From IMG/VR virus record IMGVR_UViG_2671180603_000005: a stretch of 4,524 nucleotides of DNA. One strand, written 5' to 3'. The notes under the pieces are model-generated. The model made no database searches. It was not told the origin of the DNA and worked only from the letters and a program-made list of their open reading frames with translations. Made by a program: the position numbers and the translations under genes. The stretch's first letter is position 1. The number at the start of each line of letters is the position of its first letter. Source of the stretch: a virus (taxonomy: Duplodnaviria; Heunggongvirae; Uroviricota; Caudoviricetes). Positions 1 to 4,524 of this stretch are shown piece after piece.

Positions 1-22
1 TCCTGTGCCGTTTTTCAGGTAT

Positions 23-46
23 AAAAAAACCCGCATAAAGCGGGCT
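23..46 (-). terminator. Rho-independent terminator downstream of the Q-like gene (tR'-like)
   Basis: On the minus strand: GC stem CCCGC (44..40) pairing with GCGGG (34..30), 5-nt loop TTTAT, followed directly by a run of 7 T (29..23). It lies about 75 nt downstream of the Q-like stop codon. Confidence 0.7.
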
Positions 47-123
47 CTTTCAAATGTCCATGTCTGCTATTCGCCTCGCGGTACAGCTTTGCGAAGCGTA
101 CAAGAATTGAAGCAGTTTTTACG

Positions 124-678
124 TCAAAAAGCAATAACTTTTTTCTCTATACCAAAAGCCATAACCATTGGTTTGTACAAAATAAATTCTGCCACCTTTA
201 GCCAATGCTCAATGCGTCTTTCACAGGTTCTTAAACTCCATTTCGGGTGTGCATCATTCAGCAGTTCAGCCATTTTGCGTTTGGTCATCCCCCGCCCCTC
301 ATACCGTTGCCGAAGGACGCTAATCAATCCTGGATGCTCTGCCAGCACCTCACTTATGACCCGATCAATACATAACGCCTCTGCATCAGTACAATGCGCC
401 AGCCAGCTCTTTTGCTTACCGTTAATCATATCCCGCAAAAAAGCCTCAAGTTCAGACTTGTTCAGACCTGCTTTTTTCATCCTCCGGAGCGCCTCGTTAA
501 TTGCCGTTTTTGTCAGCTTTTTAGAGGTCAACATCAGGTTAAACATATTCCCCGTCTTACCGCCACCAATATACGACCAGCGCCCCCACATACGTAGTTT
601 TCCCTGAATCCAGACACTTTCCAGCGTGGTGAGACGAAGGTGTTCTCCGCTTTTTCCTGTATTCGTTGGGTAAATCAT
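124..678 (-). CDS. Putative late-gene antitermination protein Q (phage 82/21-type family), 184 aa
   Basis: ATG at 678..676 is preceded by GGAGGG 5 nt upstream; the track ORF (start 798) is a longer upstream extension. Contains a WGRW motif and a C-terminal basic region as I recall for non-lambda Q families. Position is typical for Q: last gene before a strong terminator and right after DUF1367/DUF1364 genes. Family assignment is from memory, not searched. Confidence 0.55.
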   Translation of the reverse strand: MIYPTNTGKSGEHLRLTTLESVWIQGKLRMWGRWSYIGGGKTGNMFNLMLTSKKLTKTAINEALRRMKKAGLNKSELEAFLRDMINGKQKSWLAHCTDAEALCIDRVISEVLAEHPGLISVLRQRYEGRGMTKRKMAELLNDAHPKWSLRTCERRIEHWLKVAEFILYKPMVMAFGIEKKVIAF

Positions 679-965
679 AAATATCCCTCCTTTCTCCAGA
701 TTTCTTGTGTGCGAAAAACACCTTCTGCATGCATCAGGCGTAATTCTTCTTTGGTGTAATCGCTGGTTTTTACCCGCCCGTCGATTAAATCGTGGCACGA
801 GCTACAGGCAATCGCTGCCTGCATATCGTGTGGCTTTATCGCTGTTCCGCACGTTCCCGCCAGTCGGTAATGCGCCAGCACAGACGTTTCCGGATCGTGA
901 TTGCAGTAGCCAGGAATTCTGACGGTGCACATCTGCCCCCGCGCCGCTTTACGTAAATCCACCAT
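675..965 (-). CDS. DUF1364 family protein (YbcO-like, Cys-rich putative zinc-binding/nuclease-like), 96 aa
   Basis: Translation MVDLRKAARG..CTVRIPGYCN..ETSVLAHYR..ACSSCH resembles my recollection of DLP12 YbcO. GGAG sits 8 nt upstream of the ATG at 965. Its stop overlaps the Q start (ATGA), and its start overlaps the upstream stop (TAATG), suggesting translational coupling. Confidence 0.6.
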   Translation of the reverse strand: MVDLRKAARGQMCTVRIPGYCNHDPETSVLAHYRLAGTCGTAIKPHDMQAAIACSSCHDLIDGRVKTSDYTKEELRLMHAEGVFRTQEIWRKEGYL

Positions 966-1270
966 TACGCAAACTCCAGCAGCTGCGCGGCCACATTTTC
1001 GACTTGTTCCGGAGAGGAAAATTTACGGAACAGAATCCAGTTCCACAGCACATTCAGAACAGATTTATAAACCTGCTGAAACTCGGTTTCGTCCATATTC
1101 GCAAAAGCGATGGATTTTGCCCGACGCCCGCGGCTACCGTCCGGATAAAAATGTTCGGTGTAAAATCCAGCCTGAATGGTTACCCACTCGCGAAAAGCCT
1201 CAAACGACTTTAGCAATGCCGTATCCCGGGTTCTGCGTGTCGCAACTGTATTCAGATATTGCTCTGCGGC
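965..1270 (-). pseudogene. 3' fragment of a DUF1367-family gene (C-terminal ~101 codons), in frame but with no ATG start
   Basis: Open frame runs from the TAA at 1273..1271 down to the stop at 967..965. It encodes ..AAEQYLNTVATRRTRDTALLKSFEAFREW..QQVYKSVLNVLWNWILFRKFSSPEQVENVAAQLLEFA. The track's start at 1216 is a TTG codon. The first ~70 codons duplicate the 3' end of the upstream ORF (1271..1774). Confidence 0.55.
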
Positions 1271-1273
1271 TTA
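1064..1273. repeat. Tandem repeat unit 2 (210 bp) of a divergent in-frame tandem duplication
   Basis: 1064..1273 aligns base-for-base with 1274..1483, with about 12 mismatches in 210 bp (~94% identity). The offset is exactly 210 bp (70 codons). Confidence 0.85.
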
Positions 1274-1774
1274 TTTATAAACCTGCTGAAACTCGGTTTC
1301 GTCCATATTCGCAAACGCGATAGATTTCGCCCGACACCCACGGCTACCGTCCGGATAAAAATGCTCGGTGTAAAATCCGGCCTGAATGGCTACCCACTCG
1401 CGGAAAGCCTCAAACGACTTTAGCAATGCCGTATCACTGGTTCTGCGTGTCGCAACTGTATTCAGATATTGCTCTGCGGCTTCGCTCAGAGCTGGCGTAT
1501 GTTCCCGGCCTACTGATTCACACAGGTAATCAACGAAACCGGACACCAGTTTTCGTTCGCGAGGCGTGATCGCCCCACCGACCGGAGTCCAGTAATCGAA
1601 ACCCAGTTGCAGGAGTTTGAAAAAACGCTTGTGGAATGCGTAGTTACACACACGCTTAAAGTCTGCGTGTATCCACTCACCTATTTTGATTTGATGCAGA
1701 AAATCGCAACTCTCCGGCGTCGCCGGGAGAAGTAATCCGGAAGAGGTTTGTTTGATCAGTTGTATATGCGCCAT
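1271..1774 (-). CDS. DUF1367 family phage protein, 167 aa, C-terminally truncated by a stop at the duplication junction
   Basis: ATG at 1774..1772 with GGAG 6 nt upstream. Translation MAHIQLIKQTSSGLLLPATPESCDFLHQIKIGEW... The intact protein is inferred to be ~199 aa (167 aa plus the 32 aa that follow the repeat in the downstream fragment). Confidence 0.6.
   Translation of the reverse strand: MAHIQLIKQTSSGLLLPATPESCDFLHQIKIGEWIHADFKRVCNYAFHKRFFKLLQLGFDYWTPVGGAITPRERKLVSGFVDYLCESVGREHTPALSEAAEQYLNTVATRRTSDTALLKSFEAFREWVAIQAGFYTEHFYPDGSRGCRAKSIAFANMDETEFQQVYK
1274..1483. repeat. Tandem repeat unit 1 (210 bp), inside the DUF1367 ORF
   Basis: Partner of 1064..1273. The junction triplet at 1271..1273 (plus-strand tta) reads TAA on the minus strand and terminates the upstream ORF, where the corresponding codon in the other unit is GAA. 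Confidence 0.85.
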
Positions 1775-1800
1775 CGTAGTTCTCCGCTGGCGCAGTAGAA
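1553..1800. repeat. Dispersed direct repeat, copy A (5' end of the DUF1367 gene plus ~25 bp upstream)
   Basis: 1553..1774 matches 2283..2504 with only 2 mismatches. The upstream portions (1775..1800 vs 2505..2530) are more diverged. The copies lie 730 bp apart in direct orientation and flank the IS2 fragment. Confidence 0.85.
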
Positions 1801-1816
1801 TGGGTGTTCAGCCCGT

Positions 1817-2282
1817 TGGATTTGCCCCTATATTTCCAGACATCTGTTATCACTTAACCCATTACAAGCCCGCTGCCGCAGATATTCCCGTGGCGAGCGA
1901 TAACCCAGCGCACTATGCGGATGCCATTCGTTATAATGCTCGAACGCCTCTGCAAGGTTCTTTGCTGCCGTTAACCCGTCTGGTTTGGGCATGATACTGA
2001 TGTAGTCACGCTTTATCGTTTTCACGAAGCTCTCTGCTATTCCGTTACTCTCCGGACTCCGCACCGCCGTGTTCTTCGGTTCAAGTCCCAACATCCGGGC
2101 GAACTGGCGTGTTTCATTAGCCCGGTAGCATGAACCATTATCCGTCAGCCACTCCACTGGAGACGACGGAAGATCGTTGCCGAAGCGGCGTTCCACCGCT
2201 CCCAGCATGACGTCCTGTACTGTTTCACTGTTGAAGCCGCCGGTAGTCACCGCCCAGTGCAGTGCCTCACGATCACAGCAGA
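1817..2282 (-). mobile_element. Truncated IS2 (IS3 family): right-hand ~466 bp including the terminal inverted repeat
   Basis: Plus strand 1817.. reads TGGATTTGCCCCTATATTTCCAGACATCTGTTATCACTTAACCC, which matches the IS2 right inverted repeat as I recall it. The adjacent minus-strand ORF encodes the InsD C-terminus. Homology ends abruptly at about 2282, so roughly 865 bp of the 1331-bp element are absent. Confidence 0.8.
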
Positions 2283-2283
2283 T
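1828..2283 (-). pseudogene. insD: IS2 transposase InsD (OrfB), C-terminal ~150 codons only
   Basis: Translation ..[150 protein letters not shown] matches the IS2 InsD C-terminus. The N-terminal part and insC are missing. Confidence 0.8.
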
Positions 2284-2504
2284 CGTTCGCGAGGCGTGAT
2301 CGCCCCACCGACCGGAGTCCAGTAATCGAAACCCAGTTGCAGGAGTTTGAAAAAACGCTTGTGGAATGCGTAGTTACACACACGCTTAAAGTCTGCGTGT
2401 ATCCACTCACCTATTTTGATTTGATGCAGAAAATCGCAACTCTCCGGCGTCGCCGGGAGAAGTAATCCGGAAGAGGTTTGTTTGACCAGTTGTATATGTG
2501 CCAT
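2247..2504 (-). pseudogene. Truncated second copy of the DUF1367 gene (first 74 codons) fused into IS2-derived sequence
   Basis: ATG at 2504..2502. Translation MAHIQLVKQ...AITPRER is nearly identical to the N-terminus of the 1271..1774 ORF, then continues as [11 protein letters not shown] out of frame through IS2 sequence to a stop. The track's start at 2546 is a TTG extension. Confidence 0.6.
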
Positions 2505-2530
2505 CGGCTTTCTCCGGTGGCACGGTGTTA
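2283..2530. repeat. Dispersed direct repeat, copy B (second 5' end of a DUF1367 gene)
   Basis: Near-identical to 1553..1800 (see copy A). Confidence 0.85.
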
Positions 2531-2542
2531 CACAGCAGGAGT

Positions 2543-2830
2543 TCAATCCTGCTCAAGATTGTAGATGAGTTTATTCTTCAGCAAAAGCAGAAAACCAGCC
2601 TTAAAACCAATCTCTTTCAAAACCCGTAATGATGTGACAAATTCGTCCTCACGCAAAATAAAACCGTCCGTCAGAAGTCCATTACAAAAATAAAATAACA
2701 CAGCACCGCTCTTCCTTTGTTGAGATTGCAAACATCTAATGCGGCAATGGCTGACAATCGCTCCATTCTCAACGCGCACAGCATAGAGGCCATTTTCACT
2801 AAAAATTTCACGCAATTCTTCGATTTTCAT
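2543..2830 (-). CDS. Hypothetical small protein, 95 aa (phage orphan ORF; occupies the position of rem in Qin-like prophages)
   Basis: ATG at 2830..2828 with GGAAGGA about 8 nt upstream and a candidate promoter further upstream. No recognisable motif. Its stop abuts the upstream region of the truncated DUF1367 copy. Confidence 0.45.
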   Translation of the reverse strand: MKIEELREIFSENGLYAVRVENGAIVSHCRIRCLQSQQRKSGAVLFYFCNGLLTDGFILREDEFVTSLRVLKEIGFKAGFLLLLKNKLIYNLEQD

Positions 2831-3079: not shown

Positions 3080-3235
3080 TTACTTCCTGGATTCGTAGTC
3101 TACGAAGACAGCGACCTCCGTCTGGCCGGTTCGGATTCGTACCTCACAGAGGTCTTTCCTCGTTACCAGTGCCGTCACTATGACGGTTAAACAGATGACG
3201 ATCAGGGCGATTAACATCGCCTTTTGCTGCTTCAT
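3080..3235 (-). CDS. hok: Hok/Gef-family type I toxin (small membrane peptide), 51 aa
   Basis: Translation MKQQKAMLIALIVICLTVIVTALVTRKDLCEVRIRTGQTEVAVFVDYESRK closely resembles HokD/RelF as I recall it, with the hydrophobic helix and conserved Cys. AAGGAG sits 9 nt upstream of the ATG at 3235. The track ORF (start 3292) is an in-frame upstream extension. Confidence 0.85.
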   Translation of the reverse strand: MKQQKAMLIALIVICLTVIVTALVTRKDLCEVRIRTGQTEVAVFVDYESRK

Positions 3236-3411
3236 AGCCTGCTTCTCCTTGCCTTTCGGCATGTAAGAGGCTAACCTACATGTGCAAAGCATGAAATTGG
3301 CCTCAGATTAATGTTAAGCGTCTTGCCGGACGCGTAATGTTAACTGGGGCTTTTCTCTATCTGCCTTTTGGTGTTCATGCCTGAAGCAGATAGCCTCAAG
3401 CACCCGCAGTC

Positions 3412-3462: not shown

Positions 3463-4149
3463 TCACTCCTTCTCTTCTTTACCGTAGTGGAGTTGACCAA
3501 TTTTGATAAGAGGGCGTCCCTGAGATTTGCGGTGTAGATTGGTATCGCGCAGAGAATACACACAGCCACAATATTCCTGCTGATAGAATTTTTCGCGCTT
3601 GCTGATTTCAATCATACGGGACGAGCCGCCCTGCTTGCGCCAGTTATAATCCCAGTACACCATGCCCGGATAATGCGCGACGGCTCGCCGCCCACAGTCG
3701 TTAACCTGCTGCATATTTTTCCAGCGTGAAATGCCCAGTGAACTGCTGATCACACTGAAACCATTTTCAGCGGCGTACAGCGCTGTCCGCTCAAAACGCA
3801 TGTCAAAACACATGGTGCAACGGATCCCTCGTTCGGGCTCCCATTCCATTCCTTTGGCTCGTTCAAACCAGTTGTCTGTGTCGTAATCAGCATCAATAAA
3901 CGGCACGCCGTGTTGTTCAGCAAAGCGAATATTCTCATCCTTACGAATTAAATACTCTTTCTGAGGATGAATGTTCGGGTTGTAGAAAAAGATGGTGTAG
4001 TCGATTCCCGAGGCCTGAAGCGCCTCCATCACCTCACCGGAACATGGAGCACAGCAAGAGTGCAGTAGTAGTTTGTTTGCCCCGTTTGGGAGCTCCAATT
4101 TGGGCCGTTTGAAATCAGCAACTGTCATAAATATGTTTATTGGGGTCAT
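3463..4149 (-). CDS. DUF208 / QueH-like protein (putative B12-independent epoxyqueuosine reductase homologue), 228 aa
   Basis: N-terminal [11 protein letters not shown] motif, a central RCTMCF CxxC pair and C-terminal YCGCVYS, matching the cysteine pattern I associate with the QueH/DUF208 family. Two candidate ATG starts (4149 and 4128), neither with a clear Shine-Dalgarno. Assignment is from memory and unverified. Confidence 0.55.
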
Positions 4150-4296: not shown

Positions 4297-4524
4297 TTAT
4301 TCAGTTCTGGATTTTGTCGCCCTGCGTATCCGCGCTTTCGCGTTACGCTCAATCTGTATCAGCTTTTCTATATTTCTCCGCCTTTCCTGTTCCTCCTGGC
4401 GCAATAGCCTTACATCATCTGCCAGTCTGGTTTCTCTTTTTGCCACAGAGAGCATCCAGTCAAACGGCTCCACAACCGCACCGCAGATTTTACAGCGGAC
4501 CTGACGCTCTTTTTCGTCAACCCG
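4297..4524 (-). CDS. Partial CDS (3' end only, 75 codons; 5' end lies beyond the window), hypothetical protein with CxxC and a charged helical tail
   Basis: Minus-strand frame is open from the window edge to the TAA at 4299..4297. Translation ..RVDEKERQVRCKICGAVVEPFDWMLSVAKRETRLADDVRLLRQEEQERRRNIEKLIQIERNAKARIRRATKSRTE. Not in the ORF track because it runs off the window. Confidence 0.45.
   Translation of the reverse strand, partial: RVDEKERQVRCKICGAVVEPFDWMLSVAKRETRLADDVRLLRQEEQERRRNIEKLIQIERNAKARIRRATKSRTE

Follow-up and report, generated by a model that had tools for sequence, protein, structure and literature searches.

False "heterotype" duplications have been described in genome assemblies as two diverged versions of one sequence that are kept side by side, often with a gap between them, producing false gene gains and broken genes (Ko et al. 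2022, PMC9516828). Such a gap is a recognized hallmark of false duplications (PMC9516828). In the described heterotype cases, the two versions are the two haplotypes of diploid vertebrates. Genuine tandem duplications arising by unequal or illegitimate recombination can look similar, with head-to-tail units that remain in frame, a novel codon at the junction, and two alleles in one pair. The gene concerned here belongs to the DUF1367 family (PF07105), which occupies the late-regulatory region of lambdoid prophages in the usual order Rem, DUF1367, YbcO/DUF1364, DUF1133. Mosaic joints also affect this gene. Among the related loci that we compared, such joints place a 3′ segment of DUF1367 behind an unrelated gene, namely DUF1376 in L005, L008, L011, and L012, and another gene in L013.

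We analyzed a 4,524-nt stretch of viral DNA (the window, by which we mean this whole stretch) in which part of a DUF1367 gene is duplicated. Like the heterotype duplications, the locus holds two diverged versions side by side; it differs in that they are versions of paralogous prophage genes in a haploid bacterium, that the false copy would measure 210 nt, and that the joint in the window is ungapped, whereas a gap is present in two sister scaffolds (L007 and L010). The head-to-tail arrangement, the reading frame, the novel junction codon, and the presence of two alleles would all suit a genuine tandem duplication. In contrast to such a duplication, the joint has no microhomology and no independent contiguous occurrence, its breakpoints lie at a k-mer distance from the nearest variants, and complete genomes carry the gene as single copies. 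The surrounding gene order is the usual lambdoid one, but the gene in the window is in three overlapping pieces where relatives have one gene of 199 aa. The lambdoid mosaic joints, for their part, are contiguous, have been recovered from several independent assemblies, and connect DUF1367 to foreign sequence, not to a further DUF1367 copy. Taken together, we consider the 210-bp duplication most likely to be a false duplication from genome assembly.

The repeat consists of a tandem pair of 210-nt units on the minus strand, unit A at 1063-1272 and unit B at 1273-1482, with 11 differences and no indels. Tandem Repeats Finder reported it at 1063-1482 (period 210, 2.0 copies, 94% matches, 0% indels, score 763), and a second repeat search paired 1063-1272 with 1273-1482 at 95%. 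Both searches thus recovered the two adjacent units of about 94% identity that the initial annotation had described, although its coordinates (1064-1483) were one base out of register and should read 1063-1482. A two-copy repeat of 210 nt far exceeds what chance would produce in the window. Expressed in the coordinates of unit A, the differences between the units fall at 1106, 1112, 1118, 1126, 1130, 1154, 1169, 1180, 1193, 1226, and 1228. All 11 are therefore confined to the central 123 nt (1106-1228), and the outer parts, 43 nt at the start and 44 nt at the end, match fully between the two units.

Each unit spans approximately codons 98 to 167 of DUF1367. The two units abut at 1272|1273, and the joint is continuous and contains no N in the window; one 31-mer that crosses it is GCTCTGCGGCTTATTTATAAACCTGCTGAAA. 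The joint creates a TAA stop codon on the minus strand (1271-1273), so that the sequence reads ...GTT TAT AAA T|AA GCC GCA.... In an intact gene, ...QQVYK is followed by a Ser codon, T|CT, which supplies the T; the AA is supplied by G|AA, the Glu codon just before AAEQYL. The stop had been ascribed to a single base difference, which is the wrong mechanism: T|AA is a novel codon formed where the units abut, and no point difference is involved. We found no microhomology at the joint (GGCTT|ATTTAT), which has no base in common with ...ACAG|ATTT or ...GCTT|CGCT, the ancestral flanks.

As a result of this stop, the upstream open reading frame ends at 167 aa (1274-1774, minus strand, with the TAA at 1273-1271), and it matches PF07105 over positions 1 to 167 of 198 (261 bits, E = 6.6e-78). 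The remainder of the gene (965-1272, minus strand) is a startless 3′ part in the same frame, made up of unit A, the last 32 codons, and the stop codon, and it corresponds to about positions 98 to 198. Within it, an 83-aa open reading frame that begins with TTG matches PF07105 over positions 118 to 198 (136 bits). Open reading frames and Pfam matches thus agree with the earlier description of a 167-aa product and a startless remainder in frame with it. Because the stop falls at codon 168, the window has no single full-length DUF1367 open reading frame of about 199 aa, the length found in relatives. As assembled, the gene is present as codons 1 to 74, 1 to 167, and 98 to 199, and all three pieces score well above the PF07105 cutoff of 25, with 261 bits (positions 1 to 167), 136 bits (positions 118 to 198), and 119 bits (positions 1 to 76). 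The 83-aa protein is also encoded in L005, L008, L011, L012, and L013, the last with nine nucleotide differences that are all synonymous.

We looked up the proteins encoded in the window in public assemblies, which led to complete chromosomes. In each of two of these, CP060117.1 and UGZB01000001.1, there is a pair of prophage loci, X and Y, that lie more than 1 Mb apart and that each hold one intact 199-aa DUF1367 gene. The gene order is HNH-DUF551-hok-70 aa-DUF1367-YbcO-DUF1133 at locus X and QueH-hok/sok-Rem-DUF1367-YbcO-DUF1133 at locus Y. An intact order, with one 199-aa DUF1367 gene between Rem and YbcO, is also found in E. coli FDAARGOS_944. Using the two loci of CP060117.1 as marker references (L033 for X and L032 for Y), we typed each unit at the 11 sites that differ. 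Unit A is X-type at all 11 and unit B is Y-type at all 11, with the haplotype CACAACGCGAT. Unit A is identical (210/210) to the single-copy genes of L024, L025, L028, L030, L033, and L004, and the identity to locus X of complete genomes extends over the whole of window positions 1-1272 (1272/1272). The haplotype of unit B is that of the single-copy genes in L016, L019 (HE616528.1, which we take to be S. sonnei 53G), L027, and L032. This haplotype includes a private T at 1438, which these four carry and the E. coli relative lacks. Both intact proteins are named as Shigella sonnei by database sources, one of which labels the X protein "IrsA." Going by allele identity, the window appears to come from Shigella sonnei.

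These comparisons with intact genes of related prophages assign unit A to the X lineage and unit B to the Y lineage. The proposal of two diverged alleles, derived from paralogous lambdoid prophages, therefore holds, and both loci are present within the same complete S. sonnei chromosomes. It was likewise correct that the divergence does not stem from recent slippage, nor does it reflect drift after duplication, since at every one of the 11 sites each unit equals a preexisting allele.

Loci X and Y are not equally diverged along their length. They are 100% identical over 1,242 nt (3861-5102 in L032 and L033; 1-1105 in the window), a stretch that covers the 3′ end of DUF1367 (the last ~140 nt), YbcO, DUF1133, and a tRNA gene, and they are 5 to 9% diverged just upstream of it. 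This identity suggests that the prophages recently underwent gene conversion with each other or that they have a recombinant module in common. Because the loci are identical downstream for 1,242 nt, short reads and inserts cannot phase them there. Upstream of the dense patch of 11 sites, the markers are separated by common stretches of 46 to 72 nt.

The edges of the units lie 44 and 43 nt outside the outermost variant sites. From the X and Y loci of CP060117.1 we derived the k-mers specific to each allele, and we compared the extent of the resulting unitigs with that of unit A. With k = 45, the unitig predicted over the patch spans 1062-1272; the observed unit spans 1063-1272, which agrees on the right and differs by one base on the left. 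There is no biological reason for a breakpoint to fall at a k-mer distance from the outermost variant on both sides. By our rough estimate, breakpoints 44 and 43 nt from the variants would occur by coincidence in a few per cent of cases.

Beyond the repeat, the window switches between the two loci more than once, with the overall pattern X | Y | X | IS2 | Y. The 5′ part of DUF1367 that adjoins unit B (1483-1755, minus strand) is Y-type at eight of eight markers. The first DUF1367 codons and the sequence upstream of them (1756-1816, minus strand) are X-type at all markers, and the switch from Y to X lies inside a common stretch of 72 nt. The X-type upstream allele at 1756-1816 is common among E. 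coli. Two further assemblies, which are independent S. sonnei-like scaffolds in public records, have the A-then-B order with the same unit sequences, L007 (GCA_001259615.1, CXDS01000177.1) and L010 (GCA_001258435.1, CXCX01000203.1). L007 is pure Y, then N, then X, and L010 follows the pattern X6-Y2-X6-Y11, N, X11; the three assemblies with this order are thus three differing X/Y mosaics. By contrast, 11 loci were typed from contigs of 3.5 to 5.0 Mb, several of which are complete genomes, and every one of them is X throughout or Y throughout. The switches are confined to common stretches of at least 46 nt, and the pattern that they form is the one expected from traversal of a collapsed graph.

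In L007 and L010, a single N stands precisely at the joint, and 8 to 11 bases are missing around it. Gene calls of 170 aa in L007 (3925) and 171 aa in L010 (3915) run through the N, and their products contain an X residue. In the public records, these calls probably represent false pseudogenes. The style of the accessions and the pattern of the N suggest that both scaffolds were made by a pipeline that combines Velvet, SSPACE, and GapFiller. We also considered whether one value of k fits the contig edges in both scaffolds and rejected it, as the flanks disagree (40/36 and 36/43). Gap fillers can trim contig edges, and such trimming may account for the disagreement. The edges could also come from ambiguous gap filling across a real duplication. 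The right piece of L010 begins exactly at the position equivalent to 1273.

We searched for the joint and its truncated product in a range of collections. An 80-nt junction query against E. coli genomes had joined halves that were found 210 nt apart in single-copy genes; hence, we used a 46-nt query that can be matched only by a word spanning the joint. This 46-mer had no match in 5,426 complete E. coli genomes. Exact scans did not find the joint in IMG/VR, in GTDB representative genomes (two patterns), or in JGI metagenomes, and it was absent from all 33 of the loci that we fetched. In an exact look-up among approximately 15 billion proteins, none of the three possible 167-aa products was present. 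About 998 contigs carry the intact Y protein, and 204 carry the intact X protein.

A sequence of assembly steps could generate the arrangement in the window. The starting point would be an S. sonnei isolate with two lambdoid prophage remnants, X and Y, each holding one intact 199-aa DUF1367 gene; the loci are distinguished by 11 close-set differences mid-gene and by scattered single ones further upstream. Short-read de Bruijn assembly would collapse the flanks that are identical in X and Y, and the scattered single differences would be resolved to either allele. The dense 123-nt patch would instead give rise to two allele-specific pieces, each flanked on both sides by about k-1 (~44) common bases. 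Read pairs could then lead a scaffolder to set these pieces in series, the tail with A first, followed by B with the 5′ part. Placed in this way, the pieces would mimic an in-frame tandem repeat of 210 bp, the joint of which happens to read T|AA.

A pipeline that joins Velvet, SSPACE, and GapFiller has been applied to 299 S. sonnei genomes among others, with a mean of 405 contigs and with k set at 66 to 90% of read length (PMC5320598). According to its authors, the improvement steps that use SSPACE and GapFiller are greedy and can make false joins (PMC5320598). The target fragment size of the pipeline is 300 to 500 bases (PMC5320598). The X/Y identity of 1,242 nt exceeds such fragments, so the flanks would collapse. 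For the window itself, we infer both the assembly method and the step that removed the N: because the joint has no N, and a de Bruijn assembler alone cannot make k-mers that span it unless reads do so, a step after assembly must be assumed. Four observations count against an origin in assembly, namely the N-free joint, the asymmetry of 43 versus 44 nt, the edges of L007 and L010 that no single k explains, and a second junction in the window (2281|2283, described below) that does not follow the k-1 rule.

The initial annotation preferred an out-of-register recombination scar between alleles of paralogous prophages and named an assembly chimera as its fallback. The two alleles have been borne out. 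Four observations favor the fallback over a biological scar: the joint and its product are absent elsewhere, the sister scaffolds have an N, the edges lie at a k-mer distance, and the mosaics differ.

Among the alternatives to a false duplication, the strongest is that the repeat is real in the isolate, with an out-of-register (illegitimate) recombination or an ectopic gene conversion between the X and Y genes having put X codons 98 to 167 beside the Y version, and with the stop at the joint pseudogenizing DUF1367. We regard this as unlikely. Both parental alleles coexist in S. sonnei chromosomes, the joint in the window is clean, and Shigella genomes are rich in rearrangements and in IS elements (IS1, IS2, and IS3-family elements were seen), all of which would suit such an exchange. 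Moreover, if the duplication were real and a second A-type copy existed, gap filling would halt at exactly 1272/1273, as at the right edge of L010. An exchange of this kind would nevertheless have to produce a joint without microhomology, with breakpoints whose distances of 44 and 43 nt from the outermost variants would be a coincidence of the low probability estimated above. It would also have to have left no contiguous example in the collections searched and no 167-aa product among the 15 billion proteins, despite the roughly 1,000 contigs that carry the intact Y protein. With X and Y more than 1 Mb apart, the outcome of a reciprocal crossover would be a rearranged chromosome, not a local repeat. 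Finally, the three differing mosaics would need several more recombination events, and S. sonnei is generally regarded as clonal.

A second possibility is that identical units were duplicated in tandem within the Y gene and that gene conversion with the X allele later overwrote the center of one of them. A central tract of differences with identical flanks has the shape of a conversion tract, and the X donor is available within the same genome. This course of events requires two rare events, however, and a tract that took in the full set of 11 markers in one unit while leaving those of the other untouched; it leaves the symmetric flanks of 43 and 44 nt unexplained, and the joint and product that it predicts are absent from the same collections. 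We therefore judge it highly improbable, and less probable than a direct exchange between the two genes. An old slippage duplication whose units later diverged by point mutation would explain the reading frame, the exact 210-nt period, and the lack of indels, but the differences are clustered rather than spread and each unit is a preexisting single-copy allele at all 11 sites, so that divergence after duplication is in practice rejected and we give this origin almost no weight.

The window contains a second irregularity upstream of the repeat. On the minus strand, its order is QueH, hok/sok, a Rem-like gene, DUF1367 codons 1 to 74, a 3′ part of IS2, 42 nt of differing upstream sequence, DUF1367 codons 1 to 167, the joint, codons 98 to 199, YbcO, and DUF1133. 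The IS2 part (1817-2281, minus strand, 465 nt) encodes the C-terminal part of the transposase and includes the right inverted repeat, whose end is at 1817; it is 100% identical to the IS2 of L023. It has Pfam matches to rve and rve_3, and its E. coli matches are annotated as "IS3-like element IS2 family transposase." A complete IS2, with both inverted repeats and both open reading frames, is absent from the window, where only the last 465 nt are present and homology stops abruptly at 2281. Position 2282 is an orphan base (a) on an X/Y polymorphic site, where IS2 has t, Y has t, and X has c. From 2283 to 2526 (minus strand) there follows a second copy of the DUF1367 5′ part with codons 1 to 74 (coding 2504-2283) and upstream sequence, which is pure Y-type and continues into the context of locus Y at 99.9% identity. 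The two 5′ copies form a direct repeat (1553-1796 and 2283-2526; 244 nt, 97%, of which the 203 nt at 2283-2485 are identical) that brackets the IS2 part.

The junction between IS2 and DUF1367 at 2281|2283 is likewise nonhomologous and looks like a second assembly joint. The piece that meets IS2 there ends exactly on the next X/Y polymorphic site. The k-1 rule was tried on this junction and does not fit, as the flank is 48 nt and a variant among IS2 copies lies 9 nt from the joint. An 85-aa open reading frame that fuses DUF1367 and IS2 had no record in an exact look-up. L023 (CP026875.1) has a full-length IS2 (5462-6791) at DUF1367 codon 45, where the sides of DUF1367 overlap by 5 to 6 bp. This insertion is apparently a genuine disruption of the gene, and the overlap fits a target-site duplication. 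We rejected derivation of the window from an L023-type insertion, since in L023 the element sits at codon 45 with its target-site duplication, whereas the right end of IS2 in the window abuts the X upstream region.

The neighboring genes are those of the two prophage loci. Downstream of DUF1367, YbcO/DUF1364 (675-965, minus strand; PF07102, E = 7.7e-45) and DUF1133, of the Q-like antiterminator family (124-678, minus strand; PF06576, E = 3.8e-107; 184 aa in relatives), are the same in X and Y. The upstream neighbor at locus Y is the Rem-like gene of 95 aa (2543-2830, minus strand). Its product had no match in our Pfam scan of the window, and PF27490 (Rem) is on record for an identical product. 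Next comes a complete hok/sok type I toxin-antitoxin system (3080-3405, minus strand), with hok at 3235-3080 (HOK_GEF, E = 9.8e-23) and sok at 3405-3230 (RF01794, 117 bits, full-length model). A gene for QueH, an epoxyqueuosine reductase (3463-4149, minus strand), lies inside the prophage early region. The related phage contigs L005 and L006 have a gene with the tRNA-guanine transglycosylase-like domain PF20691 (TAGT), and together QueH and TAGT hint at a phage queuosine or 7-deazaguanine pathway. In complete S. sonnei chromosomes, the position equivalent to the right end of the window at 4524 (1382|1383 in L032) is exactly where an IS3-family element with the terminal sequence TGAGGTAGCCTGAGTTTAACGG has its outer end. 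This agreement suggests that the window is a whole contig bounded by repeats, as would be expected of a short-read assembly.

The mosaic joints of related phages fall close to the joint in the window. They are located at 2909 in L005, 2885 in L008, 2884 in L011, 2247 in L012, and 3057 in L013, which correspond to approximately 1233-1267 in the window, so that at least two independent mosaic joints lie within about 40 nt of the joint between A and B. These mosaic joints may mark a recurrent boundary, or a domain boundary near residues 100 to 112 of the protein.

If the duplication is an artefact, there is no biology to pursue in it, and DUF1367 is probably intact, or disrupted only by an IS element, at both loci. 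In that case, S. sonnei short-read scaffolds, at least those of GCA_001259615.1, GCA_001258435.1, and the source of the window, hold a false in-frame duplication and truncated gene calls. Such false DUF1367 truncations would score as pseudogenes in studies of genome decay. Assemblies could be filtered by a signature that can be checked, in which all differences lie in the middle of the units and identical flanks of about k-1 stand on both sides. If the duplication is instead true, it would be a small and modest case of recombination between prophages, with the decay of a prophage gene caught in the act in Shigella sonnei.
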